From a virus, in the IMG/VR virus record IMGVR_UViG_3300035649_000033, positions 1 to 40,040 of that record: DNA of 40,040 nt; one strand, given 5' to 3'. Below are positions 3,291 to 36,879 of the stretch, piece by piece. The translations under genes and the position numbers were made by a program. The notes under the pieces were generated by a model. That model made no database searches, was not told the DNA's origin, and saw only the letters and a program-made list of their open reading frames with translations. Every line of letters begins with the position of its first letter. Within the stretch, counting starts at the first letter, position 1.

Positions 3291-3897
3291 GTTGCTGCAT
3301 CTCCTCAATTTGCTGCTTCACATATTCATCCGGCGATATGTTTGTGCATTTAATCTGTAAGTAGGTTTCCAAAGTATCTTCCATCCGCGCCCTCAACGAG
3401 TAATAATTCACCAAGTCGGGATATTCCTGCTCAAATCGATCTACGGCTTCTAATGTCCATTGAACTTCCCGCGGCATCCATAATGCCAAACAGAGATAAA
3501 TGAGGAGGACAATTATAACAGTGATAAGATAGGCGGTCGTCATTGGACGATCTGTCATTGCTTCGTAAACGCAAAGCGCAGTTATTACAGGGCTCATGAG
3601 GCAGAGAAAAGCGTTGAATTTTAAATCATTTTCATACGGAATTAGTTTAATGTTTCGATCTCCTATGCTGAATCCCGCATAGATTATAACGTATGCAAGC
3701 GCAATGAGGCCGGGGCCTATAAAAGCCGCCAATGGAGCTGTTAAAATTATGTCCAACAAGTCTCGCAGCTTCGCCTCTATAGCCCACTCTCCGCGTCCGT
3801 TCGCATAAACCAAAAGCGGAAAAGCGAATCCGATCGCCCAGTCAATCAGAACAATAAAAAACATGAATATTTTCTTTGCTTTTTTTACCTTTTCCAT
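3277..3897 (-). CDS. Multi-pass membrane protein with cytoplasmic C-terminal domain (lysogeny-module accessory gene)
   Basis: At least 4 hydrophobic helices. AT-rich codons. SD gaggag. Its end overlaps the int start by 14 nt. Confidence 0.7.
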   Translation of the reverse strand: MEKVKKAKKIFMFFIVLIDWAIGFAFPLLVYANGRGEWAIEAKLRDLLDIILTAPLAAFIGPGLIALAYVIIYAGFSIGDRNIKLIPYENDLKFNAFLCLMSPVITALCVYEAMTDRPMTTAYLITVIIVLLIYLCLALWMPREVQWTLEAVDRFEQEYPDLVNYYSLRARMEDTLETYLQIKCTNISPDEYVKQQIEEMQQHEKS

Positions 3898-4070
3898 ACA
3901 GATCTCCTCAGTATATTATCAAATAAGAATAATGGAAAAAACTCTACTACTCTATATAACGAAAAAACGCCAAATGTTGTACTTACCCATGAAAGTTTTT
4001 GTATTTTTTAAACTTTTCTACCTTTTTCACAAGACAAAGTCCGAATGTTTGTATAATATTTCAAAGGCTT

Positions 4071-5337: not shown

Positions 5338-5868
5338 TTACCTGAAACACCAAATGATAAGCGCGATGATCACAGCCACAATGATCACAGATACAGGGAG
5401 CAAAAGAATAAAGAATGACGAGCCTAAACGGTGATGTGTTCCGACACGCCTTGGAGATTTCATCAATCTATATAAAACGATCCCGAATATGCCAAGGGAC
5501 AGCAAGATTAACAAGCCTGCGACAAATTTTCTGCCTGCAAAAGGCTTGTTGGAAGCTTCTGTTACCGGATGCCAAACAGATTTTGCTGAGCTTTCTTCCT
5601 GTGTTTCTTCCTCATACCAGGCATCGGTGTAATCCATTCCTGCGGTCTTTTCTAAGTTTTCTTCATAGTTGGAATCAAACGGGCAAACGCCGTCTGGATG
5701 CCCGTGCGCAGGAAAACCATGATGATAATGATACATCCCCATCTGATGGTCATAATGGCCGCCCCGTGAATCAGTACGGCCCGAATGCCCAAAAACCGTC
5801 AAGGGGAGCAACGTACAGAACAGCAGCGCACAGGCGGTTATAGCGGCACATTTTTTGCACAATCGCAT
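5338..5868 (-). CDS. Secreted/membrane-anchored His-rich YHYH-motif protein
   Basis: Signal-like N-terminus, then GHSGRTDSRGGHYDHQMGMYHYHHGFPAHGHPDG, an acidic linker and two C-terminal TM helices. Confidence 0.75.
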   Translation of the reverse strand: MRLCKKCAAITACALLFCTLLPLTVFGHSGRTDSRGGHYDHQMGMYHYHHGFPAHGHPDGVCPFDSNYEENLEKTAGMDYTDAWYEEETQEESSAKSVWHPVTEASNKPFAGRKFVAGLLILLSLGIFGIVLYRLMKSPRRVGTHHRLGSSFFILLLPVSVIIVAVIIALIIWCFR

Positions 5869-6012
5869 GCTCTCAATCCTTCCCTATTAACTTTCTATTT
5901 TTAACCCGCGCGAGCGGGTATGGCAGAAGCGCGAAATCTGTGATTTCACGCTGATTCTAGCACAATCTTACCACGATTTGGACTTCATGTAAATAAACAA
6001 GAGGTGATCTAC

Positions 6013-7656: not shown

Positions 7657-8043
7657 ATGGCATTTGAACAGAAGGACGAGCTTTACCGGGTGATCGTTCG
7701 GGATCCGAAGCTCCCGCCGGAGGAACTGGCGAAGCATCACAAGGATCTATCCACAGCGGAGACCAAGCTATACGTGAAAGCGTATGCGGCCCTGGACGGC
7801 GCGGAGATCATCGTCAAAAAGTGCCCAGATGGTACATATTGCATCTGGGACTGGACCGAAAACGCCGATGCGCAGGTCCGCGACGCTTACTATGCAATCG
7901 AGCAAGACCGGGTATTCAGCGCATATTTCGGTGCGTATTGCGGCGACCGAGAAGGCTTTGAGAGGGCATGGGAAGAAGGCTGGGCGATCAAAACCGAAAT
8001 CACGCTTGCAGAGGATTTCTTCGAGATCATCGAAAAACTCTGA
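7657..8043 (+). CDS. Hypothetical early protein
   Basis: SD aaaggag; globular-looking composition. Confidence 0.6.
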   Translation: MAFEQKDELYRVIVRDPKLPPEELAKHHKDLSTAETKLYVKAYAALDGAEIIVKKCPDGTYCIWDWTENADAQVRDAYYAIEQDRVFSAYFGAYCGDREGFERAWEEGWAIKTEITLAEDFFEIIEKL

Positions 8044-8059
8044 GAAAGGAGGAACAACC

Positions 8060-8449
8060 ATGCTCACCGAAGAAACTGCCATCAAACTGATCCTCCAAGA
8101 ACTCGGCGCATCGCCCAATGCACTCCGGACGACTGGGGTACACAATGGTGAGATCAAAATGTATTTGGTCCACATGGGGCGCTATGACGTCAGAGTTACC
8201 GCATGTGATAAGGAAACCTTGCTCATGACCATTTGGCGCAGCGGCCAAAGCATCAGTACCTATCACAATGCGCAAACCCTGGCAGAGGACAAAACCCGCA
8301 CAGAGATCGAGCGCCGGGCCGCATATGCAGAAACCGTCCGCAATGCAATCTTAGGAATGGGTTTGGAAGGCTGCCGGGAATTGATCGACGCCTGGCAGGA
8401 TTTCTGCCGAGATGAACATGCGGTAAATACCAAAAATAACAATACATAA
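8060..8449 (+). CDS. Hypothetical early protein
   Basis: ATG 8060 follows SD aaaggagg. The longer track ORF (7784) is an out-of-frame extension across the previous gene. Confidence 0.6.
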   Translation: MLTEETAIKLILQELGASPNALRTTGVHNGEIKMYLVHMGRYDVRVTACDKETLLMTIWRSGQSISTYHNAQTLAEDKTRTEIERRAAYAETVRNAILGMGLEGCRELIDAWQDFCRDEHAVNTKNNNT

Positions 8450-11410: not shown

Positions 11411-11666
11411 CACTACGCATCCTTGGGCTCTTCGCTGGGCGCAGCGCCTTGCGAATGACATCCACCAGTCCCCGCAATTTGTTATGGAGTTAGAGCAACT
11501 GACAGCCAGAATGCCGGAAGCGCCGAGGGAAGACATGCGTACCGCCCTGTCATGGATGGTTGCAGCATATTATGAACATCTGAAGGGCCGATGGACCGAA
11601 GAGCGGACGAAAAAGCAGATCAGAGAAGCAGAAGAGCTGATGCAGAGAGGGGAGCTGATAAAGTGA
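11313..11666 (+). CDS. Hypothetical small protein (start uncertain: 11313, 11358 or 11484)
   Basis: Stop is GTGA-coupled to the helicase-MTase start. The C-terminal 60 aa look helical and protein-like. The N-terminus overlaps the upstream gene. Confidence 0.4.
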   Translation: MVGGGYSTISASNGRMNILTGASDNSTSFKQGDTTHPWALRWAQRLANDIHQSPQFVMELEQLTARMPEAPREDMRTALSWMVAAYYEHLKGRWTEERTKKQIREAEELMQRGELIK

Positions 11667-14179
11667 GAACCTATGAAGAATTTTTACGGTCTAAAATGGA
11701 GCTTGCCCCGAAGAGCGGGTTTGAGATAGATCCGTCGGAGATCAATCCCATCTTGAAACCGCACCAGCGGGATGCGGTGCAATGGGCGGTACGCGGCGGC
11801 CGGCGGGCATTGTTCGAGAGGTTCGGCCTCGGAAAGACCGTACAGGAGCTGGAATGGTGCCGAATCGTTACGGAGCGTCAGGGAGGACAGGCCCTACTGG
11901 TGTTGCCTCTGGGCGTGCGGCAGGAGTTTACCCACGACGCGCAGGAGCTGTTGCACATTGCCCCGCCGCAATATGTCCGCACGATGGAGGAAGTCCTACA
12001 GACGGAGGGACCGCTCCTGATGACCAACTATGAGCGGGTGCGGGACGGGGATATAGACCCGTCATATTTTACAACCGCTTGCCTCGATGAGGCGGCAGTG
12101 CTGCGCTCCTTCGGGAGCAAAACCTACCAGACGTTCCTTGACAAATTTAAGGGTGTGCCGTACAAGCTCGTAGCGACGGCCACGCCCGCGCCGAACCGGT
12201 ACAAGGAGCTGATCCACTATGCAGGGTATCTGGAAGTGATGGACACCGGGCAGGCCCTCACGCGGTTTTTCAAACGGGACAGCACGAAAGCGAATAACCT
12301 GACGCTTTACCCGCACAAAGAAGAGGAATTCTGGCTGTGGGTATCCTCCTGGGCGCTGTATATCTCGAAACCGTCCGATCTTGGCTACGATGATACCGGA
12401 TATGACCTGCCGCCGCTGGATGTGCGTTATCACAAGCTGTGCATGGACGCCGCGCCGGTCGTTGGCAAGGATGGGCAGGAGCATTTTCAGCGGGAGGCCT
12501 CTGTCTCCCTCAAGGACGCGGCTGCGGTCAAGCGAGAGAGCATCGCCACTCGCGTGGCAAAGGCGGCGGAGATCGTCGACGATAACCCGCAGGAGCATTT
12601 CATCCTCTGGCACGACTTGGAAGCGGAGCGGCACGCGATCAAAAAAGCTCTGCCGGAAGCCGTGGAAATCTACGGCTCGCAGGAGCTCGACGAGCGGGAA
12701 CGCAATACCATTGACTTTTCTAATGGGGAAATCCAACTGTTGGCCACGAAAAAGGAACTATCCGGATCAGGCTGCAACTTCCAGCGGCACTGCCACCGGG
12801 CGATTTTCGTCGGGATCGACTATGATTTTAACGACTTCATTCAGGCGATCCACCGTATTTACCGATTTTTACAGGGCGAGCGGGTTGTGATTGATATCAT
12901 TTACATGGATGCAGAAAGCGAGATTCTCAGGGCTCTGCAGCGCAAATGGGCGCAATACGATGAGATGACGGCAAAGATGGCCGAGATCGTCAAACAGTAC
13001 GGATTGTCGGGAACCAATATGATGGAAAAGTTGCAGCGCAGCATCGGTGTGGAGCGAAAAGAGATAAAAGGGGATCATTTCACCGCGGTGCAGAACGATT
13101 GCATTTTAGAATCGGAGCGTATGCCGGAGAACAGCATTGACCTGATTGTGACGAGCATCCCATTTTCCAACCATTATGAGTATACGGCGAGCTACAACGA
13201 CTTTGGGCACAATGAGGATACAAAGCGCTTTTTTGAGCAGATGGACTATCTGTCCCCGCAGCTGCTCCGGATCCTGCGTCCTGGACGGGTGATGGCGGTA
13301 CACGTCAAAGACCGGGTGCTGTTCGGCAACGCAACAGGAACGGGCATGCCGACGATGGAACCGTTTCACGCGATGTGCATTGAGCACTATATGCGCCACG
13401 GGTTTATGTACTTTGGGATGATAACGGTAATCACAGATGTGGTGCGGGAGAACAACCAGACCTACCGGTTGGGATGGACAGAGCAGTGCAAGGACGGAAC
13501 AAAGATGGGCGTCGGTTGCCCAGAATACATCCTTCTCTTTCGCAAGCTGCCGACGGACCGCAGCAAAGCCTATGCGGATACACCGGTGACGCGGACAAAG
13601 GAGGATTATCCGTTGGCGCAGTGGCAGATCGACGCACACGGCTTCTGGCGCAGCAGCGGGAACCGCCGGATGACGCGGGAGGAGATCAGTGCCATGCCGA
13701 TCGATCAGATCCAGCGCATTCAGAAGCAATTCTCCCGTTCGCATGTCTATGACTACATCCAGCATATCGGGTTCACAGAAGCATTGGGCGAAGCGGGAAG
13801 GCTGTCGAAAACCTTCATGACGGCGCCACCCGCGAGCTGGCACCCGGACGTATGGGACGACGTCAACCGTATGCGCACGCTCAACACGACGCAATCTGCC
13901 CGGCGGCAGCAGATGCACGTCTGCCCGCTGCAGATCGATATTGTACAGCGGCTGATTAACCGGTATTCCAACAAGGGGGACGTGGTGCTGGATCCGTTTG
14001 CAGGCCTGTTCACAGTGCCGGAGGAGGCAATTAAAATGGGCCGGGAAGGATACGGGATCGAACTGAATGTGGGATACTTTGCAGATGGTGTGGAATATTG
14101 CCGGTCAGCAGAAGCGGAGGTAGACCAGCCGACGCTGTTTGATTTCATAAAAAGCCAAAACGGGAGGGAAGCGGGTTGA
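11663..14179 (+). CDS. SNF2/DEAD-like helicase fused to an N6-A/N4-C type DNA methyltransferase domain
   Basis: Helicase motifs: PHQRDAV, GLGKT, LDEAAVL, QAIHRIYRFLQ. MTase motifs: DLIVTSIPFSNHYEY (motif IV variant) then VLDPFAGLFTVPEEAIKMGREGYGIELN (motif I), i.e. beta-class order. Confidence 0.85.
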   Translation: MRTYEEFLRSKMELAPKSGFEIDPSEINPILKPHQRDAVQWAVRGGRRALFERFGLGKTVQELEWCRIVTERQGGQALLVLPLGVRQEFTHDAQELLHIAPPQYVRTMEEVLQTEGPLLMTNYERVRDGDIDPSYFTTACLDEAAVLRSFGSKTYQTFLDKFKGVPYKLVATATPAPNRYKELIHYAGYLEVMDTGQALTRFFKRDSTKANNLTLYPHKEEEFWLWVSSWALYISKPSDLGYDDTGYDLPPLDVRYHKLCMDAAPVVGKDGQEHFQREASVSLKDAAAVKRESIATRVAKAAEIVDDNPQEHFILWHDLEAERHAIKKALPEAVEIYGSQELDERERNTIDFSNGEIQLLATKKELSGSGCNFQRHCHRAIFVGIDYDFNDFIQAIHRIYRFLQGERVVIDIIYMDAESEILRALQRKWAQYDEMTAKMAEIVKQYGLSGTNMMEKLQRSIGVERKEIKGDHFTAVQNDCILESERMPENSIDLIVTSIPFSNHYEYTASYNDFGHNEDTKRFFEQMDYLSPQLLRILRPGRVMAVHVKDRVLFGNATGTGMPTMEPFHAMCIEHYMRHGFMYFGMITVITDVVRENNQTYRLGWTEQCKDGTKMGVGCPEYILLFRKLPTDRSKAYADTPVTRTKEDYPLAQWQIDAHGFWRSSGNRRMTREEISAMPIDQIQRIQKQFSRSHVYDYIQHIGFTEALGEAGRLSKTFMTAPPASWHPDVWDDVNRMRTLNTTQSARRQQMHVCPLQIDIVQRLINRYSNKGDVVLDPFAGLFTVPEEAIKMGREGYGIELNVGYFADGVEYCRSAEAEVDQPTLFDFIKSQNGREAG

Positions 14180-27678: not shown

Positions 27679-29154
27679 ATGGCAACCACTTATAAAATCA
27701 AAAAAGGCGATACGCTCAGCGGCATCGCCTCTCGGTACGGGACGACTGTATCCGCACTGGCGAAGGCCAACAACATCAAAAACCCCAATTTGATTTACGC
27801 CGGGAACACGCTCACAATCCCTGGATCATCCGGCAGCACAACAAAAAAGACAACTACGACTTCCACAACAACCACTGTTACAGCACCGAAAGCACCGGCC
27901 GCGCCGAAGGCGACGCAGACGGCCACTCAGAAAAAAGTTGCGCAGCTCGAATCCAGCAAGCCGACCTATACGCAGTCGGACGCACTCAAACAGGCGGCCG
28001 CCACCCTTGCACAGAAGGAGCAGGCAAAACCAGGCGAGTATCAGAGCAGCTACGCACAGCAGATTCAAGACCTACTCAACAAGGTCACGAACCGCGAGAA
28101 GTTTTCCTACGATATGAACGCTGACCCGCTTTACCAGCAGTACAAGGATCAATACACCCAGCAGGGGCAGATGGCCATGATGGACACCATGGCGAATGCT
28201 GCGGCGCTCACGGGCGGTTACGGCAATTCTTATGCTTCTACGGCCGGGAATCAGGCATATCAGGCGTATCTTGGGCAGTTGAACAATGTGATCCCCGAGC
28301 TTTACAATGCGGCCTATGGACGCTACCGGGATGAAGGAAACGACATGTATCAGCAGTTGGGAGTATTGCAGGGGCTGGAGGAATCCGAATACGGGAAGTA
28401 TCGCGATACGGTTTCCGACTACTACACTGACCTTAATTATTACTACAACAAATATCACGATATGTCAGCGGATGAATACAACAGATACGTCAACGATCTT
28501 TCGGCTTGGCAGCAGGATCGCGCCTACTACTACGGCAAGCAAAACGACGAGCAGCAGCAGGCCAATTGGCTGGAGCAGATGGCCTACCAGAAAGCGCAGG
28601 ACGACCTGGCGCGCCAGCAGTGGGAAAAGCAGTTCGCCTACCAGAAGGAGCAGGATGCAAAGAGCCTGGCGCTCTCCTATGCACAGCTCAACGCGCAGAA
28701 GGCGGCAAGCGCAGCGTCGAGAAGCAGTGGGTCCAGCAGTAGCTCGAGCAAAAAGTCGGCCAATCTCTCAAAATATGAGGATAGACTTGATTATTATGAG
28801 CAGGACATGGGGTATACGCCGCAGGAGCTTGCAAAAGTGATCGCGGGATTTGGGCTTGATACAGCCAGCTCTCAGGAGCTCGCGCGGATGTATGGCTGTT
28901 ACAACGAATATGCAACGCTTACCGGCTCCGGCAACGGTGGAAGCACGAGCAGCAAAAAGAATTCCAGTTCCACTTCTTCCGCCGCAGTGAAGAATGACCA
29001 AAACAGTATTTTGGCGCTGGGATACGGCCCAATCAATGACGCTGAACTAAAAAGGCTGCTTGCGGAAGGAAAAATTACATACACCGTTAAAAACGGAACC
29101 CGCTACTACAAAAAGGTCAACTTCCAGGGAAGCCGGACGTTCCCACTGAAATAA
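27679..29154 (+). CDS. LysM-domain protein with long Q/Y/N-rich region
   Basis: [44 protein letters not shown] is a canonical LysM domain. Confidence 0.75.
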
Positions 29155-29169
29155 AGGAGGAAGCGGCAG

Positions 29170-32100
29170 ATGAGTATTAAAAAGATCAAAAACTATTTTG
29201 ATCCCCGTGAAAACCTCATTCTAAACCGAGAAGACAAGGATGAAGATGAGCTGACGTTTGAAGATGCGCACAATATTGGCGTGCAGCGCATGAAAGCGGA
29301 GCGCAGCGGCGGCAAGGCCGCAACTTCGTCATCCGCTTCGCGGCCGGCCGCTCAGACTGCTGGCATGCAGGCTACCGGAATGGGACTGATGACGGAGCTG
29401 CAAAAGAACAATCTTAGTTTTGATGACGCCCGGCAGCTTGGTATGCGCAACCATGCGCTCGATTACCAGCGGAAGATCCGCGAGCGAGCGCTCAAAATGC
29501 GGGAAGAATTGAAAAATCAAAAATCCCCCTACGAAGAACTCAGTAAAGAGGACAAAGGGAGCTTGGCACGCCTTTATTCCCTGCAAAATCAGTTGAAAAC
29601 GTTCGCGACATATAATCAGACGAACCCACAGGGCGGGAACCCGATGCTGCAAACACAGAACCCGTACAACTCCGACATCCAGCAGGAGTATAACAAGCTT
29701 TATGCCGATCTCAACAAAAAGGGATATGATGTTACCGAGCTGATGCGCCATTATGAGCGCATTAAAAACGGAGAAGCTGCAGAGAGCATCAAGGGCTACC
29801 TTGCGGAAAAGACAGCAGACCATCCCGCTTTGATGAGTGCCGCCTCCGTGGGGCTGAACCTTGCCACGCTACAAAACAGCTTTCCAAAGGCTGTGAAGGA
29901 TGCTATTTATGATAAGGTGTATGGGACCGATCTCAGCGTCGACACAAACGCCCCGGAATTCTTTGGAACCTACGCCACAAGTGCGGTCAGGCAAAAAGCA
30001 TCCGAGGATATCGTTGAAAAAACGCGTGAAAAATACGGCAACGGAGCTGCGTGGGCGGCAAACCTGCTCTATGGCACAGGAATGTCCATGGCGGATTCCT
30101 TGACCGCAAATGCGCTTGGAGGCTTTACTCCCATTGGGGGTGTGATACAAGGCATCAATGCGGCAAATAGCAGTTTGATCGATGCGAGTGAGCGGGGCGT
30201 TTCGGTAGGAAAGACGCTTCTTACCGCAGCGGCCTCGGGCGTTTTTGAGGGCTTGTTTGAAAATGTAAGTCTGGGGAGCCTGAAGGTGATGCAGCCGGAG
30301 ACAACCAGTACATTGAAAGCGGTAGGCAAGAATATTTTAAAGCAGATGGGTGTAGAAGGCTCGGAAGAAGCAGCTACGGAAATTGCAAATATCGCTTTTG
30401 ACAGCCTTGTGAACGGAGATAAATCCAACATGGCTCTGAAGCGTGCTGCATACGTCAATCAAGGAATGTCCAAGGCAGAAGCAACCAGCCAAGTCATATG
30501 GGATGCAGTGAAGCAGGCTGCAGAGGCTGGGCTTGGCGGAGCATTATCCGGTGTTGGCTTCGGCGGCGGCGCTGCGCTCATGAATTATGCAGCCTACAAT
30601 GGACAGCTGCATCAGATCGGCGCCGAGGCCCTGCAATCCAGCCAATTCAATGCCCGACTGCAAAACGCTTTGCAATTTGAACCCAATAGTTCCATCGGGA
30701 TGCTTGCCGCGCAAATGGCGAACAGGGACAACGTCAGCAACAGGGAGGCTGGACGATTTGTAACGAAATACGACCATGCGGCGGTCGAGGCGATTGAGGG
30801 GGCTCAAAATGAACAGGAAGCACGGGAGGCATACGCACGTTTTGCAGGCTCAGAGGAGGCCGCAGACGACACAGCCTACCTTGCAGGAACGCTCAATGAG
30901 AGGCTGAGGGAACTAGCCCTTCAAAAAACAGATGAAGAGCGGGCAGCAGATAGGGACAATGAAGCGTCCAAGATAGAAAAAGCAGCCCCGCATGCTGCGC
31001 AGGAGGAGGCTGCACGCGCCTCTTCAATGGCCAACGCATCCAACGACTACGTTGGCCGGGAGGGGACAGCACAGCGCATAGATACCACAGCGGCGGAAAG
31101 CGCGCCGCGCACCGCGACTGGCAGATATGTCAGGCGGGACGGAACGGCGTGGCGCACGGGAGCAGGGACAAGCCTGGCCACGGGTACCGCAGCAGAGGAA
31201 GCAGGCGGCCGTTATTCCTCAATGGCACCCGCCAAGCTGGCAAACACGGGAGAAGAAGTTGCTGTGACGGACGTCGCAAGTACAGACGGCGGCGTGACCG
31301 TGAAACTTTCCGACGGGAGAACTGCGAAGCTGGATGAACTGCAATTTGACAGCAACGAAGAAAGAGCACTTTATAGTATGGCGAAGCAGTTCCCGACAGA
31401 TAAGGCCAAATCCTTTGTCAATAATTACGATGGGAAGGTGGAACTGGAAACTTATACGCAGGCTTTCAACGTCCTCTACGATGCGGGCTATCAGGGCAAA
31501 GTGAGCCTAGAAAAAGCAATGCAAAAATTCTCTGATCTTCCCAAGTCCATCCGCAGCTGGTTGCAGTTCCTTTATCTCGCGGGGCAAAACCGCGCGGCGG
31601 TGGATGCTCAAACCAACAAGACAGATCTATCTGTCCAAAAGGAGACTGGAAGCTTTGTCAATGAACTCTCGCCCGGCAGCGAACTGGAGGAATCTCTGAA
31701 AGTGCTCTATGAAGGCGTTGCTGCGAAGACAGGGCAGGATGTGGTGCTGCGTGATCAAATCGAGCACGACGCTAACGGGGCGTTTAACCGCGCTCTTTCC
31801 CAGATCGTTATTTCCGACCAGGCGGACAACAAAGTCGCCACACTCATCCACGAGACGGCGGAATACGTGAGGGAATATAACCCGAAGGGTATGCTTGACC
31901 TGCAGGAAACAATGCTCAGCTGGTACGCAAAGAGCTGCGATTTTGAATCGCTGGCTGATATGGTTGAACACTACCGCGATTTGTATGCCTCAAGCCTTGG
32001 AGATGAAAGCGCGCAGGATGCGATGGGAGAGATGTACAACGACGCTCTGTCAGCATTGTTTACCGATGAGGAAGGCGTGAAAGACCTGCTGAATTGGTTG

Positions 32101-35100
32101 AAAACAGATTCCGGGAAGACTGTGGAGCAACAGAAGAGCTTTCTTCAGACGGTTGTTGACTTATTCGACCGCTTGATCGAGAAGATCACAGGGTATTTCA
32201 AGGAACATAGCCTGCCTGATGGCGCAAAGGGTTTTGAGCGGATGGGCCTCGACCAGATGAAGGCGATCCGCCAGCAGTTCCTTGAGGCAATTGACCAGGC
32301 AAAGGAAAACTATGACGCCGCCACGCAGCAAACATCAGACGGCTTTGCGGAGGTCGAGACTGCCGGAAAAGACAAGCAAGAGATCTCCGTCAAAATGGAA
32401 AATGGGGAAGAGGTAAAGGCTGAGCGCATTGACAGAAGCGACGCAAAATATGCCTTGAACCCTGATTTTGAGCAGCAATACGATCAATGGGACAAGAAAG
32501 ATCCCCGCTGGCGGTTCAAAGTGGGAACGACCTCCGAAGCGCTGAAAAGTATTGGAATCCCAGATAAAAAAATTATATGGGATTCTGGTAAAATTATTAA
32601 AATCAAAGCCAAGCATTCTGGGATGACGGATTCGGTTATCAAGCAAGTGCCGCACATTTTAGAATCTCCGGTTATCATTATGAGATCAAAACAATCCGAC
32701 AGCCGGATCACGATGTTTGGAGAAGTATATGACCGGAACGAAAAGCCCGTCTTAGGTGTTATAGAACTTCATCCCACCCGAAATGGAATCGCGATGGACG
32801 AATTCAAAGTGGCAAGCGCCTATGGGAAGGACAACGCCCAGCGATTCATTAGCAGCAGCGAAATTCTTTATGTAGAGCCAAATAAAAATAGGACGCATAC
32901 ATGGCTGAGGCGTACTGGGCTCCAATTGCCGGTCGGCCTCAACCAATATGGTCCTATTGGTAGAATAGCACGCGCTGATGAAAATGTCAACAGTGAGGCC
33001 TCCACCGATAGCAGTATACGCAACGGTGAGCAAAACGATGCATCCGGCGAGGACGTCAAATACATGTTCGCTGGGGAAAAGGCCAAAACTGCAAACCTGT
33101 CTGCATTAGAGCGCGCCAAGAAGGAGAAAGAAAGCGAGCTGCAACCAGGCGAGATGATCCGGCGTAGTACCGGATGGCACCAGGGAGCAGACGGGAAATG
33201 GCGGTTTGAAATTGACGACAGCAAGGCAAGGCTTGGAGATGAGAACAGCCATAAGCTGGGCAACTTCCTAATTCACGAAGAACTGTATGAGGCGTATCCC
33301 GAGCTGCGGGACGTCAAGGTGGCGGCTCTGCCGGAAAGCACGCCGCTGAACCGGAGAGGAAAATATAACTCAAAAGAAAACACAATCCAATACAACCCGA
33401 ACCTTTCGACCAAAGAACAGATGAAGGTGATGCTGCACGAGATACAGCATATCATCCAAAGAACAGAAGGTTTTGGGAGAGGGGGAAGTGTGGAGTTCTC
33501 CAAAAGGTACTTGTTTAACCGGGCGTACGATTACGCAAAAGCGCTACCTTCCTATCAAAATATGCAAACGCCGGAGCAGCGAGAGCAGTTTGTGATCGAT
33601 CTGATCGCTGCTCAAAGCCGATCAGGGGACCTTGAGGGAGCGGCCGAAGGAGCTTACCGCAATCTGTTCGGGGAAATTGAGGCGCGCAATACCGCCAACC
33701 GCCAGCCGTTAGATCATCGAGGGAGAAAGCTGTCATCACCGGCAAACCCGAAGGGAAGCATTGCCGTCACCGACTGGCGCGCGGAGAACGAACGCTACCG
33801 GAAGAACATGGAAGAAATTGAAGGAGCTATTGCTTCTTCCCAGCAGACGCCATATAATCAGGATAAAGGAGGCAATCTGTATGACGAAGAAAGAAGTTTA
33901 CGAAGCGCTGATGGACGATTTGTTGGGGGACGGGATGCAATACGACGAGAACTACAAACATCCTCCGATGAGCGGGATGGAGTGGATGGAAATGACGAGA
34001 GAATTCTTCAAACTGGAAAAAGAAGTAATGAACAACCCGGAAGCGGCGCAGGAAGAATTTACGACGGAGAACAAGGCGCTGATGGATTGGGTCGAGGAGA
34101 TAAAAATATTTTACGACCTGAAATAGACCAGTCACACCTGCAACTGAAAGACCCCGCCGAAGGCACGCCAGAGTATGCCGAGATGCTCTCTAAGTGGGGA
34201 GCGATCAAGCCGGGGCACAGCCCCTTCCGACACATTGAAGTGCCAAAAAAGACCTCCAGAACGAAAAATGTGCGGCAGTTCGTCCGGACAGTGCTCGAAT
34301 CGAACGCGATTTCGGACGATATGGTAACGGATATTCAGGAATCCGTTGTGAATGAAGCAATGTCCTACATGCCAATTTCCGACAAGCAGGCACAGGAAAC
34401 AGCAAAGAAGCTTTTAAAATCCGGGATGGATAAAGCCTGGCGGCGGTGGAATGCAATTGTTGACGGCGACAGTATGCCTCAAAAGAGCGATATCGCCCTT
34501 GGGGAATACCTGCTGCGCACAGCTGCGGAGAACGGGGACAAAGCAGAGGTGGTGCGCTTGACGGCGGAGATTGCCGAGTTTGGCACGCGAGCGGGCCAGA
34601 ATGTGCAGGCGCTCTCCATGCTGAAAAAGATGAGCGGAGTCGGTCAGCTCGTCTATGTGCAGCGCACGGTGGAAACGATCAACAAAGATTTGCTCAGGCA
34701 ATTTAAGGGAAAAGCTTTCGGCGAAGTGACGATCAACGAGAAGCTTGCGGAGAATCTGGCGAACGCAAAAACGCCAGAAGAAGCGGATGCCGCTGCAATG
34801 GAAATCTACAAGGATGTCGCCGACCAACTACCGCCAACGTGGATTGACAAATGGAATGCTTGGCGCTACCTTTCCATGCTTGGCAATCCGAAAACGCACA
34901 TCCGAAACATCTTGGGTAATGCGGTGTTCGCTCCGGCTGCCCGACTGAAAGATGCAATCGGGGCAGGGATTGAGGTTGCGGCAATCAAGGATGGAGAGCG
35001 GACGAAAGCAGTCGCTCCAAAACAGGAGTATAAAGAGTTTGCAAAGAAAGACTTTGAACAAATGCAGGATATCATCAAATCCGGTGGCAAAATGAACCCC

Positions 35101-36879
35101 GCCGATGTTATCCGCGATCAGATGACGATCTTCAAAAACAAAACCCTGGAACGCTTGCGAAAGAAAAACTTTGAGCTTATGGAACTGGAAGATGGTTGGT
35201 TCCTGAAAAATCACTATCAGGCTGCTTTGGCGCAGTATCTGCAGGCAAATAAAGTAAATCTTTCCGAGATCAGCGAAGAGCAGCTGAATAAAGCCCGAGC
35301 CTATGCGGTAGAGCAGGCACAAAAGGCGACGTTCCGTGACACCTCGCCAGTGGCCACTGCAATTCAAAGAGCATCCGATGCCAACAAAGTCTTAAGCTTG
35401 ATTGCAGAAGGCGTGCTTCCTTTCAAGAAAACGCCGATCAATGTTTTAAAACGCGGCGTGGAATACAGCCCTGCCGGCCTTTTATATACCCTGAGCCGTG
35501 GAAGCATGCAGTTAAAACGCGGAGAAATTACCGCATCACAGTACATTGATGGCTTAGCTTCTGGGCTGACTGGTACAGGCCTTACAGCGCTTGGCGCGCT
35601 TCTCTATAGTTTAGGCTGGGTATCCGGCGGTTTCAGCGACGACAAGGAGGACGAATTTGCCAAGCTGCAGGGGCGACAGGAGTATGCCATACGCATCGGA
35701 GATAAGACCTACACCATCGACTGGATGGCTCCGGCTGCAATTCCGTTTTTTATCGGAGTAGAGTTGATGGCGGCTCTCAAAGGCGAGTATGATGATGTTC
35801 CATCCCGTGCGATTATTGATGCGCTCACCAATATCGCAGAACCCATGTTTAACCTCTCCATGCTGGACGGGCTGAACAATACGATCAATACAGTTTCCTT
35901 CTCAGATAATAAGCTAACTGCGATGATGCAAGAAGTCCTGACCAGCTACTTTATGCAGGCAATTCCATCAGTATCTGGGCAGGTGGCGCGCACAGCCGAT
36001 AAAACACGCAGACGGACATATATTGATAAAAATAGTTGGATTCCCGAATCCGTGCAGCGTGCTTACCAAAAGCTTTTCAACAAGATCCCCGGCCTTTCCT
36101 TCCTGAACCAGCCCTACATTGACGAATGGGGCCGAGAGGATACGACACAGAATATTGTGGTAAGGGCTTTTGAAAACTTCCTATCTCCCGGCTGGTTCTC
36201 CGAAATCAAAACATCCGATATGGAGCAGGAACTCCAACGGCTGTACGAAACCACCGGAGAAAACGGTGTGCTGCCGGGCTATGCGGCGAAGTACATCACC
36301 GTCAATGGCGAGAAAATCAACCTCACTGGCGACGAATACACGCTCTTTGCCTCTACGCGCGGCATGACTGCCTACAGTATTATCAGCGAGATTGTGAGCT
36401 CAGAGGAATATGCCAATATGAGCGACGGCCAGAAAGTAAAGGCAATCAAGGACGCCTTTGAATTTGCTGGTGCTGCTGCGAAGGCCGCTGTATCCGACTA
36501 CGAACTTGACGGATGGCAGCAGGACGCGAACGAGGAAAATCAGAAGGAAGGAACCTCCATCGGCGAAATCATAGCCCACCGAGCGGCGACGAATGGCGCG
36601 GTACCAGAAATTGCTTCCATCCTTCAGAAAGAAGGGGCGGAGGCCGCCCAGGAGAAACTCGACCGTATGATGAAGGCTTGCGTTTCAAGGGACGAGATGA
36701 AGGATCAGAAAGGCAATGTGAAATCAGCGATCACCAGAGCATATAAGAAGCAATACATAAAATACCACGATGCGGGAGATGCAGAAGGAATGCGAAAGAT
36801 CCGGCAAGAGATGATGCAGTTGCGCACGCCGGTTGGGAAGCTATATACGATGAAGGACTTCCGCAATTGGATCAATTAA
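29170..36879 (+). CDS. Giant (2569 aa) polyvalent-type virion protein with zincin-like HExxH domain and hydrophobic segments
   Basis: Uninterrupted ORF after SD aaaggagg. MLHEIQHIIQ at 33436..33450. Gly-zipper/TM-like stretches near 30060..30600 and 35550..35790. Confidence 0.8.
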   Translation: MSIKKIKNYFDPRENLILNREDKDEDELTFEDAHNIGVQRMKAERSGGKAATSSSASRPAAQTAGMQATGMGLMTELQKNNLSFDDARQLGMRNHALDYQRKIRERALKMREELKNQKSPYEELSKEDKGSLARLYSLQNQLKTFATYNQTNPQGGNPMLQTQNPYNSDIQQEYNKLYADLNKKGYDVTELMRHYERIKNGEAAESIKGYLAEKTADHPALMSAASVGLNLATLQNSFPKAVKDAIYDKVYGTDLSVDTNAPEFFGTYATSAVRQKASEDIVEKTREKYGNGAAWAANLLYGTGMSMADSLTANALGGFTPIGGVIQGINAANSSLIDASERGVSVGKTLLTAAASGVFEGLFENVSLGSLKVMQPETTSTLKAVGKNILKQMGVEGSEEAATEIANIAFDSLVNGDKSNMALKRAAYVNQGMSKAEATSQVIWDAVKQAAEAGLGGALSGVGFGGGAALMNYAAYNGQLHQIGAEALQSSQFNARLQNALQFEPNSSIGMLAAQMANRDNVSNREAGRFVTKYDHAAVEAIEGAQNEQEAREAYARFAGSEEAADDTAYLAGTLNERLRELALQKTDEERAADRDNEASKIEKAAPHAAQEEAARASSMANASNDYVGREGTAQRIDTTAAESAPRTATGRYVRRDGTAWRTGAGTSLATGTAAEEAGGRYSSMAPAKLANTGEEVAVTDVASTDGGVTVKLSDGRTAKLDELQFDSNEERALYSMAKQFPTDKAKSFVNNYDGKVELETYTQAFNVLYDAGYQGKVSLEKAMQKFSDLPKSIRSWLQFLYLAGQNRAAVDAQTNKTDLSVQKETGSFVNELSPGSELEESLKVLYEGVAAKTGQDVVLRDQIEHDANGAFNRALSQIVISDQADNKVATLIHETAEYVREYNPKGMLDLQETMLSWYAKSCDFESLADMVEHYRDLYASSLGDESAQDAMGEMYNDALSALFTDEEGVKDLLNWLKTDSGKTVEQQKSFLQTVVDLFDRLIEKITGYFKEHSLPDGAKGFERMGLDQMKAIRQQFLEAIDQAKENYDAATQQTSDGFAEVETAGKDKQEISVKMENGEEVKAERIDRSDAKYALNPDFEQQYDQWDKKDPRWRFKVGTTSEALKSIGIPDKKIIWDSGKIIKIKAKHSGMTDSVIKQVPHILESPVIIMRSKQSDSRITMFGEVYDRNEKPVLGVIELHPTRNGIAMDEFKVASAYGKDNAQRFISSSEILYVEPNKNRTHTWLRRTGLQLPVGLNQYGPIGRIARADENVNSEASTDSSIRNGEQNDASGEDVKYMFAGEKAKTANLSALERAKKEKESELQPGEMIRRSTGWHQGADGKWRFEIDDSKARLGDENSHKLGNFLIHEELYEAYPELRDVKVAALPESTPLNRRGKYNSKENTIQYNPNLSTKEQMKVMLHEIQHIIQRTEGFGRGGSVEFSKRYLFNRAYDYAKALPSYQNMQTPEQREQFVIDLIAAQSRSGDLEGAAEGAYRNLFGEIEARNTANRQPLDHRGRKLSSPANPKGSIAVTDWRAENERYRKNMEEIEGAIASSQQTPYNQDKGGNLYDEERSLRSADGRFVGGRDAIRRELQTSSDERDGVDGNDERILQTGKRSNEQPGSGAGRIYDGEQGADGLGRGDKNILRPEIDQSHLQLKDPAEGTPEYAEMLSKWGAIKPGHSPFRHIEVPKKTSRTKNVRQFVRTVLESNAISDDMVTDIQESVVNEAMSYMPISDKQAQETAKKLLKSGMDKAWRRWNAIVDGDSMPQKSDIALGEYLLRTAAENGDKAEVVRLTAEIAEFGTRAGQNVQALSMLKKMSGVGQLVYVQRTVETINKDLLRQFKGKAFGEVTINEKLAENLANAKTPEEADAAAMEIYKDVADQLPPTWIDKWNAWRYLSMLGNPKTHIRNILGNAVFAPAARLKDAIGAGIEVAAIKDGERTKAVAPKQEYKEFAKKDFEQMQDIIKSGGKMNPADVIRDQMTIFKNKTLERLRKKNFELMELEDGWFLKNHYQAALAQYLQANKVNLSEISEEQLNKARAYAVEQAQKATFRDTSPVATAIQRASDANKVLSLIAEGVLPFKKTPINVLKRGVEYSPAGLLYTLSRGSMQLKRGEITASQYIDGLASGLTGTGLTALGALLYSLGWVSGGFSDDKEDEFAKLQGRQEYAIRIGDKTYTIDWMAPAAIPFFIGVELMAALKGEYDDVPSRAIIDALTNIAEPMFNLSMLDGLNNTINTVSFSDNKLTAMMQEVLTSYFMQAIPSVSGQVARTADKTRRRTYIDKNSWIPESVQRAYQKLFNKIPGLSFLNQPYIDEWGREDTTQNIVVRAFENFLSPGWFSEIKTSDMEQELQRLYETTGENGVLPGYAAKYITVNGEKINLTGDEYTLFASTRGMTAYSIISEIVSSEEYANMSDGQKVKAIKDAFEFAGAAAKAAVSDYELDGWQQDANEENQKEGTSIGEIIAHRAATNGAVPEIASILQKEGAEAAQEKLDRMMKACVSRDEMKDQKGNVKSAITRAYKKQYIKYHDAGDAEGMRKIRQEMMQLRTPVGKLYTMKDFRNWIN
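33881..34126 (+). CDS. 81-aa acidic, Met-rich protein embedded in the +1 frame of the giant gene
   Basis: SD aaaggagg lies 8 nt before ATG 33881. GC3 is 67% in this frame against 22% in the giant frame over the same nt. Confidence 0.5.
   Translation: MTKKEVYEALMDDLLGDGMQYDENYKHPPMSGMEWMEMTREFFKLEKEVMNNPEAAQEEFTTENKALMDWVEEIKIFYDLK

Follow-up and report, generated by a model that had tools for sequence, protein, structure and literature searches.

In the 40,040-nucleotide stretch of viral DNA analyzed here (positions 1 to 40,040 of the IMG/VR record IMGVR_UViG_3300035649_000033; hereafter the window), which represents a tailed-phage genome of ~40 kb from human-gut metagenomes, a small open reading frame (ORF) at 33881-34126 lies wholly inside a same-strand ORF of 2569 codons (29170-36879) and is offset from it by +1, as is characteristic of embedded genes. 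The enclosing gene encodes a giant polyvalent virion protein, and the nested ORF is quite probably a gene of its own, translated independently within a stretch that the giant protein reads as an inter-domain spacer; this judgement covers the architecture and the mechanism of translation, the function being excluded from it. What lifts the nested ORF beyond chance is the flip in codon usage, the Shine-Dalgarno (SD) sequence, the conservation among relatives and the avoidance of stop codons. The length of the ORF itself does not, as +1 ORFs of at least 55 codons starting with ATG are ordinary in giant genes (~4 per gene; 335 observed vs 271 expected from codon shuffles).

The nested ORF had been pointed out in a preliminary description of the window, and its start at ATG 33881, its stop at TAG 34126, its 81 codons and its translation were all reproduced from the sequence. 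Likewise, the SD sequence noted there, AAAGGAGG at 33865-33872, was found with a spacing of 8 nt to the ATG, and this ribosome binding site (RBS) is the identical 8-mer that serves the giant gene. The GC content of third codon positions (GC3), counted by hand as 67% in the embedded and 22% in the giant frame, was computed as 0.671 and 0.220 over the nested stretch, and the string of R, G and D residues quoted for the giant frame is seen in its translation. The shift in codon bias was also recovered by a sliding-window analysis, using a codon log-likelihood score for which ten other long ORFs in the window served as the training set: across the whole 7.7-kb gene, the +1 frame outscored the giant frame only in sliding windows starting at 33850-33970. 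RNA folding revealed no stable structure masking the nested SD and start (fold z-scores of -1.45 to +1.0), the scan for promoters and terminators found none on the + strand near the nested gene, and Rfam at E <= 1 gave for the nested region only a chance match to a long non-coding RNA on the opposite strand. The DNA of the nested ORF is identical in four independent ENA assemblies.

The pattern of substitutions among relatives follows the small frame (in the following, W denotes the version in the window, and L- and P-numbers denote loci of relatives and their called proteins, respectively). Between L001 and L107, 20, 8 and 32 substitutions occur at positions 1, 2 and 3 of the small frame (p = 7e-4), resulting in 24 amino-acid differences in the small, 45 in the giant and 40 in the third frame. 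For L019 and one of two copies in L021 (L021b), the corresponding values are 16, 9 and 29 substitutions and 24, 37 and 36 amino-acid differences. In giant-frame numbering, the least variable position of the nested stretch is its own third one, and the flanks, aligned codon-aware, feature the normal giant-frame pattern (42/30/147 and 47/42/144). Because the substitutions follow the small frame, this frame is under purifying selection, and the giant-frame peptide is not; the spacer peptide diverges as much as the unused third frame. Hence, a constrained small frame is combined with an enclosing frame that stays open. The earlier proposal that both frames are maintained applies to the small frame as a protein, and to the giant frame only as an open, spacer-like reading and not as a peptide.

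The openness of the giant frame is reflected in the codons of the small gene. The nested ORF comprises 7 codons ending in T and 34 codons starting with AA, AG or GA, and a T-ending codon never stands directly before one of the 34, exactly as counted before. When the synonymous codons of each small protein were resampled according to the codon usage of the phage, the giant frame remained open with a probability of 6e-4 for W (2e-4 with a second codon table), 9e-4 for L019, 2e-3 for L021b and ~0.02 for the L001 type; the avoidance thus held, and the ~2% originally estimated for W turned out to be a conservative figure. Because neighbouring codons are not independent, 81-codon segments of real genes in the window served as an empirical control, in which an open -1 frame was scored. 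Such a frame occurred in 16% of all segments, in 9% of those with 25-29 codons starting with AA, AG or GA (as in the L001 type) and in 0 of 426 with at least 30 such codons (as in the W subfamily). The third frame contains 3-9 stops in every lineage. For the W subfamily, the argument from stop avoidance is strong.

Relatives were retrieved from viral and metagenome collections with the conserved region downstream of the nested ORF as query, which is unbiased toward the ORF itself, and searches of protein collections added more. Homologues of the small protein were found in at least five diverged lineages with 27-41% identity to the W version and form two subfamilies, one including W, L019, P0005, P0007 and the L021b copy (P0003), the other L001/L017/L018 (P0004), the L021a copy (close to P0006) and L107 (P0008). 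The preliminary description had asked whether related phages carry the gene free-standing or always nested, and had named stops in their +1 frame or a lost ATG or SD as evidence against it. All copies proved to be nested at +1 in an uninterrupted giant ORF, start with Met-Thr-Lys and end with a stop of their own, and SD, ATG, ORF and stop are all kept. The SD was found 8-9 nt before the ATG in L001, L019, L021a, L021b and L107 (aaggag, agggagg, aaaggagg, taggagg or caaggagg), so that the nested gene's own initiation signals are conserved in relatives. Invariant in the alignment are M1, T2, K3, E23, P28, E41, L45, E48, P53, E59, F60 and L80. A profile search of 5.8 billion clustered proteins yielded seven called small proteins, all of 78-81 aa; in 3/3 contigs inspected, the pipelines had called the small ORF because the contig end cuts the giant ORF. 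A free-standing or in-frame version was found neither in the 107 loci examined nor in a phmmer scan of 1.84 billion representative proteins. Besides, a scan of viral contigs for the SD-ATG DNA pattern returned 10 loci, with the known L001 contig as the only relevant one.

The surroundings of the nested gene vary among these relatives. In W, L019 and L107, the cassette is placed after the giant protein's zincin-like domain, and in L001/L017/L018, the giant protein of which has neither zincin nor LPD23, directly after the MuF_C domain. In L021, two tandem nested paralogues (55-294 and 307-546), one of each subfamily, possess their own SD and ATG, and the giant frame remains open through the ~500 nt of both copies. 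As a stop in the +1 frame is located 5 codons before the ATG of L021b, this copy must initiate independently. L021 is 92% identical to W downstream, yet it features a different cassette complement, and an exchange of cassettes between close phages is implied. In the more distant relatives (~85), the junction is empty and consists of a short Ser/Asn-rich linker without a frame switch.

Several candidates for deviating versions were rejected. P0002 (3760 aa), which matched in 10 stretches and resembled an in-frame repeated version, is low-complexity and rich in Asn and Asp, the match being compositional. An 84-aa +1 ORF at a similar place in L002 is no family member, and by eye the giant frame is a normal coding sequence there. 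L107, at first sight a free-standing copy among bacterial genes, turned out to be part of a further giant gene, in which the ORF is nested like the others. This gene fragment is directly abutted at L107 1258-1425 by a CRISPR-like repeat of 34 nt that occurs three times (GGTCGCTCCCCACACGGGGAGCGTGGATTGAAAT, spacing 66-68), and the rest of the contig is bacterial (GH3, FGGY kinase, xylose isomerase, AraC); L107 is probably an assembly chimera formed through a spacer/protospacer match, and hence a possible link to a host. Moreover, in L001 the cassette is separated from the conserved C-terminal region by an extra in-frame domain of ~190 residues at 5441-6006 (YSLKRSMGEAGVYMDD...WDNPELVRWFFEE...), for which no Pfam family was reported, and the same extra domain begins after the cassette of L107.

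The predicted small protein consists of 81 aa with a pI of 4.3 and a net charge of -11 and contains no Cys, a single His and 9 Met. An AlphaFold2 (AF2) model based on a 7-sequence alignment (mean pLDDT 85.2, pTM 0.74) predicts helices at residues 3-14, 32-51 and 65-77, and a compact three-helix fold is confidently proposed. Accordingly, the small, acidic and helical nature previously ascribed to the product was borne out, and the count of ten Met had to be reduced by one. The sequence has no match in Pfam, PHROGs, NCBIfam, a PDB profile search or phage and plasmid collections, and Foldseek found no neighbours of the model in PDB or BFVD (best E about 2-6). The spacer reading of the same nucleotides has a hydrophobic fraction of 0.22 and is composed to 78% of Gly, Pro, Ser, Arg, Asp, Glu, Gln, Asn, Lys and Thr.

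The mechanism that we favour is internal initiation on the late mRNA of the giant gene, where ribosomes would start at the strong, accessible SD-ATG and translate the +1 frame into a free acidic three-helix protein. For ribosomes coming from 29170, these nucleotides would be frame-0 codons for a flexible spacer of 82 residues, by which the conserved C-terminal region of ~917 aa would be connected to the variable effector array (MuF_C, LPD23, zincin). Internal initiation with frame-0 read-through is the simplest reading; neither an RNA family nor a + strand promoter or terminator was found, and the nested start is free of stable structure. The residues of the spacer would be immaterial, the absence of a stop codon being the sole constraint, and this would be satisfied as long as no T-ending codon of the small gene precedes a codon starting with AA, AG or GA. 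Codon usage is a criterion for dating overlapping frames, and a +2 shift of the new frame has been reported to give high disorder (PMC8227390). By this criterion, the small gene may be the older reading and the giant-frame spacer, which is +2 relative to the small gene, the overprinted one. The helix-forming leader upstream and the nested gene might have been gained as a unit in an inter-domain linker and then shuffled like other polyvalent modules. Since cassette and leader occur in different contexts, this unit would represent a shuffling gene-in-linker module and not an immunity gene tied to the zincin.

A number of points weigh against this interpretation. The translation of the small ORF is deduced from sequence. 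AAGGAGG is not confined to gene starts in the window, so the motif alone is weak evidence, and the conservation of SD and ATG is not fully separable from that of K-G-G and [Y/H]-D-E-E, the residues specified by the same nucleotides in the giant frame. Stop avoidance is modest in the L001 subfamily taken by itself (2% simulated, 9% empirical), and the probabilities of the individual lineages cannot be simply multiplied, because the lineages are related and openness is partly inherited. The coil predicted for the spacer (pLDDT 40-52) stems from a single-sequence model in which the downstream flank is also weakly predicted, and is thus supportive, not decisive. That the small gene predates the overlap is suggested with no free-standing homologue to show it directly, and with no match in Pfam, PHROGs, NCBIfam, PDB or BFVD any function is assigned with low confidence.

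Part of the evidence can be read differently. The patchy distribution in one clade only with absence from the ~85 more distant relatives, the tandem copies in L021, the flanking domains differing between W and L001 and the other cassettes of L021 at 92% downstream identity to W would also suit a selfish insertion cassette which invades the linkers of giant genes, leaves the host frame open and encodes a small protein serving the element and not the phage. An insertion of this kind with a hidden out-of-frame gene is known from the phage ShiLan (PMC11855218). Nevertheless, the product lacks any nuclease, recombinase or HNH/GIY-YIG signature, has no Pfam or NCBIfam match and contains no Cys and one His; nucleotide-identical copies elsewhere appeared neither in tblastn of the small proteins against all fetched loci nor in the SD-ATG pattern scan of viral contigs, no dedicated search for target-site or terminal repeats around the cassette having been made. 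Furthermore, small-frame purifying selection across 27-41% identity fits a long-resident functional gene better than recent homing, so that a selfish origin is considered unlikely. Genome-like codon usage in the +1 frame, which the giant frame does not share, could likewise be the fossil of a former in-frame domain remodelled by two compensating frameshifts, with the small ORF left untranslated, and out-of-frame remodelling is documented for bacterial gene families. A fossil frame would decay, whereas purifying selection persists among lineages that are already nested (20/8/32 and 16/9/29), every lineage has retained the SD, an ATG precisely where the protein begins and a stop where it ends, and each tandem cassette has its own SD and ATG; in addition, the two large protein searches (1.84 billion representative proteins by phmmer, 5.8 billion clustered proteins by profile) found no in-frame version, all members having 78-81 aa. 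Remodelling is therefore regarded as very improbable.

Frameshifting in prfB and dnaX is stimulated by SD-like sequences within the gene, and no +1-frame stop occurs over 23-56 codons before the ATG in W, L001 and L019, which would be compatible with a programmed +1 frameshift near 33880 that yields a truncated giant protein with an 81-residue C-terminal tail beside the full-length form. However, a slippery or stop/hungry-codon context is missing (the codons after the SD are GGC AAT CTG TAT in W and GCT GAC ATG CAT in L001), and after the SD nothing is conserved except the ATG itself. The SD-ATG distance of 8-9 nt is a spacing for initiation and differs from the prfB +1 site, where the SD is ~3 nt away. 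The second cassette of L021 is preceded by the above-mentioned +1-frame stop, and conservation begins exactly at Met-Thr-Lys; as an explanation, a frameshift is thus highly unlikely as well. The abundance of +1 ATG-ORFs of at least 55 codons would finally allow for a chance ORF, a compositional artefact or indel errors joining separate genes. This is effectively refuted by 28 coding-like +1 ORFs in giant genes of relatives vs 0.0 expected, by the conservation of the small protein in the +1 frame, by the confident AF2 model, by the identical ORF DNA in the four assemblies and by a giant frame without stops in any lineage, in which the codon junctions at risk are specifically avoided. An intron or other RNA element was also rejected, as no Rfam family and no stable structure was found (z -1.45 to +1.0), and so was an intein.

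Concerning its role, the independently translated small protein may, with low confidence, be an accessory module of the polyvalent array that must act as a separate polypeptide. A counter-defence or host-interaction factor is our tentative preference, well short of an assignment, because of the fast divergence and the swapping of cassettes between otherwise 92%-identical phages. A partner of the giant protein made in cis (adaptor, chaperone or neutraliser), which might dock on the neighbouring leader helix, is a rather doubtful but conceivable option. The preliminary description had linked the ORF to the HExxH module located before it and considered an immunity protein. This link was not sustained, as the position is not conserved: the L001/L017/L018 cassette follows MuF_C in giant proteins without zincin or LPD23. 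Thus, the invariable adjacency to one effector domain that marks pairs of toxin domain and immunity protein is absent, and an immunity protein for the zincin was rejected on the ground that these loci keep the cassette without zincin and that L021 has a second cassette next. With regard to DNA mimics such as Ocr, ArdA and AcrIIA4, the small protein is acidic (pI 4.3), but neither its sequence nor its predicted fold resembles any known mimic. As DNA mimics share no common fold, such an activity is conceivable also without a fold match.

Further nested ORFs were encountered in a scan of 76 non-redundant giant ORFs of relatives for +1 ATG-ORFs of at least 55 codons with codon usage beating that of the main frame. 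The 28 coding-like ORFs mentioned above were obtained in the +1 frame, compared with 0.0 from codon shuffles, and none in the +2 frame. An SD 4-11 nt upstream was present in 15/28 of them vs 40/305 of the other +1 ORFs (p = 2e-6). They fall into ~8 unrelated families. With tblastn, every match of the six nested families examined was nested, except for matches at contig edges where nesting is unscorable; Pfam, PHROGs and NCBIfam gave no match for five other nested families. Family B (MEKQYIYATAANG...), a basic product of 55 aa with a pI of 9.8, has 24 matches across relatives with 7 distinct nucleotide variants. Its variable columns number 4/3/12 by small-frame position and its variable amino-acid columns 4 in the small, 14 in the giant and 15 in the third frame, a pattern which shows the signature of purifying selection on the small frame. 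Family C (L041/L042) exhibited no significant frame signal (27/19/29), and the probability of an open giant frame for these other families was 0.01-0.15. The recurrence of nested genes across such giant genes is consequently likely, but not established. More speculatively, the giant polyvalent genes of gut Clostridia phages might systematically carry a hidden +1 layer of at least ~8 families, i.e., linker cassettes shuffled with the effector domains, whose products would be non-covalent partners (adaptors, neutralisers, counter-defence) for the injected array, and the giant protein would keep its covalent continuity by stop avoidance; we consider this possible at best.

The giant gene is part of a structural module, with genes for a terminase, a P22-like portal, a DUF859 protein and a LysM protein upstream and a BppU/collagen protein downstream, and an independent assembly of the same genome is available in ENA as a 39,996-nt contig. 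With MuF_C, LPD23 and zincin encoded by a gene in the terminase/portal module, the enclosing gene has the composition of a polyvalent-protein gene (Table 1). The HExxH motif of the zincin-like domain, HEIQH, starts at residue 1423 (nt 33436). Within the leader, a helix is predicted at residues 1536-1557 (pLDDT 73-91). The C-terminal region contains a hydrophobic segment (residues 2128-2156) and has no match to a Pfam or PHROG family; its identity is 75-92% within the close clade and 34-51% in ~85 further viral or metagenome-assembled genome (MAG) loci. In PHROGs, the giant protein matched only giant families of unknown function plus a metalloprotease. Upstream of the same C-terminal region, giant proteins of relatives carry PBECR5, PF18760, PF18812 and PF18798 (L054 ~3369-4056; P0010, P0013, P0025, P0027, P0030). 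These domains confirm that the effector array varies on a C-terminal chassis that stays constant. Distant relatives of the C-terminal region occur in Clostridia and Oscillospiraceae MAGs, and the host of the phage is probably a Gram-positive member of the Clostridia. Resemblance to the region was detected neither by blastn/tblastn against 50,697 deposited phage genomes nor by tblastn against plasmids.

Table 1. Features of the giant gene and its nested gene in the window, and unrelated nested ORFs in loci of relatives
Feature	Position	Strand	Remarks
Giant polyvalent virion-protein gene, 2569 aa	29170..36879	+	ORF list, Pfam
RBS of the giant gene, AAAGGAGG	29153-29160	+	9 nt before its ATG
MuF_C, residues 1142-1241	32593..32892	+	Pfam PF18819, E = 2.1e-15
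LPD23, residues 1298-1355	33061..33234	+	Pfam PF18838, E = 1.3e-19
Zincin-like metallopeptidase, residues 1381-1452	33310..33525	+	Pfam DUF6782 E = 1.6e-8, Peptidase_M78 E = 9e-4
Giant-frame leader (WRAENERYRKNMEEIEGAI...YNQDK)	33775..33864	+	conserved in W, L019, L001 and L107, whatever the upstream domain
SD of the nested gene, AAAGGAGG	33865..33872	+	encodes K-G-G in frame 0
Overprinted spacer of the giant protein (putative), residues 1571-1652	33880..34125	+	stop-free, non-conserved, hydrophilic, G/R/D/E/S-rich
Nested small gene (putative)	33881..34126	+	+1 frame, ATG 33881 to TAG 34126, 81 codons
Peptide of the predicted 81-aa product			EVYEALMDDLLGDGMQYDENYK
Conserved C-terminal region, ~917 aa	34126..36879	+	begins right after the nested stop codon
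Unrelated nested +1 ORFs (55-94 aa)	L098/L102 3112-3282; L042 4099-4368; L041 4099-4383; L058 4120-4290		
Unrelated nested +1 ORFs, further	L053 4150-4362; L106 40-219 and 3319-3486		
Unrelated nested +1 ORF, ~24 loci	e.g., L054 2053-2220		

Elsewhere in the window, further observations were made. Between MuF_C and LPD23 (32830-32950), the codon score of the giant frame drops below zero (-0.13 to -0.15) with no other frame winning, a dip which may mark another linker or a recently acquired module boundary. Within the ORF 7784-8449, AAGGAGG is followed after 7 nt by an in-frame ATG, giving an internal ORF of 129 codons (8046-8449); this ATG may be an internal in-frame start, or the gene start of the ORF may be mis-set. 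The early/replication part includes an 862-aa ORF (11591-14179) in which the N-terminal region of an SNF2-related helicase is fused to an N6/N4 DNA methylase domain.

The nested gene represents an unusually clean case, with good statistical support, of coding in two frames of the same strand by a double-stranded DNA phage, and its asymmetry runs in an unexpected way: the nested frame encodes the conserved protein, and the giant gene accepts any stop-free spacer. Nested genes of this kind are invisible in the annotation of phages and metagenomes, because callers report the small ORF only if the giant ORF happens to be cut off at the end of a contig, and giant genes of this class commonly contain them, as the scan suggests. 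Polyvalent proteins are regarded as counter-defence arrays that are injected. Modules translated separately from within their genes, if true, would thus constitute a new element of their biology and a source of candidates for anti-defence proteins and adaptors, and the polyvalent effector repertoire as well as the gene content of phages would be under-counted by every current annotation pipeline. Moreover, the geometry of the frames permits separation-of-function mutations by single bases. In silico, T33882C converts the nested ATG into ACG and is silent in the giant frame, C33901A turns Tyr7 of the nested product into a stop and keeps Arg in the giant frame (CGA to AGA), and G33886T changes a Glu codon (GAA, the eighth counted from 33865) of the giant frame into a stop and is silent in the nested one (ACG to ACT).

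Among known systems, polyvalent proteins (Iyer et al., 2017, PMC5512222) resemble the enclosing gene product as giant MuF-associated arrays of shuffled effector domains; a term search of the main text of that paper gave neither 'overlap' nor 'frameshift', and no nested ORF is described there. The nested small genes would add a hitherto unrecorded, non-covalent layer to such arrays. In the Rz/Rz1 spanins of the lambda/T7 type, a tailed-phage gene likewise encloses a smaller gene completely, which has its own start and uses another frame of the same strand. Classical embedded o-spanins are all located in the +1 frame, and embedded spanins are routinely missed by automated annotation (PMC6139136). 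In contrast to Rz1, the nested product has no lipoprotein signal, lipobox or any Cys and thus lacks the features of an o-spanin, which is not to be expected in a probably Gram-positive host anyway. Furthermore, both products of the Rz locus are functional and interact, whereas the host-frame reading is a non-conserved spacer here, and the enclosing gene is no lysis gene but a 2569-codon polyvalent virion-protein gene. In the mycobacteriophage ShiLan, a hidden out-of-frame HNH endonuclease insertion was described in a DNA methylase gene (Arsenault et al., 2025, PMC11855218). Both cases share a host-gene frame without stops, a real protein in the other frame, a patchy distribution and a host-frame reading which is predicted to be loop-like, i.e., a tolerated insert. 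Nevertheless, the nested product described here is an acidic three-helix orphan of ~80 aa without the characteristics of a homing endonuclease, and its gene features a strong canonical SD and an ATG, unlike ShiLan with a GTG start and no detectable RBS. The cassettes also occur in tandem and belong to one of several unrelated nested families, with no evidence of homing.

A conceptual parallel to the spacer is found in the polymerase of hepatitis B virus (HBV), the spacer of which overlaps preS/S and has been explained by a model of fusion across a pre-existing short gene (Pavesi review, PMC8227390). In both, a large multidomain protein reads a disordered tether over DNA that encodes an independently expressed protein, and codon usage marks the tether as the newer frame with a +2 shift. 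HBV, by contrast, is a pararetrovirus of eukaryotes, its overlap is much longer and the functions of both frames are known, and the evolutionary direction is suggested by codon usage alone in the case of the phage. As the junction is empty in the more distant relatives, the gain of a cassette in a linker is favoured over a fusion of three ancestral genes. Accordingly, the architecture as such is already known from Rz/Rz1, the hidden HNH gene of ShiLan and, conceptually, the HBV spacer. New are its setting in a giant polyvalent virion-protein gene, the contrast between a constrained nested gene and a merely stop-free host frame, the modular, tandem and recurrent nature of the cassettes and the orphan protein family itself.

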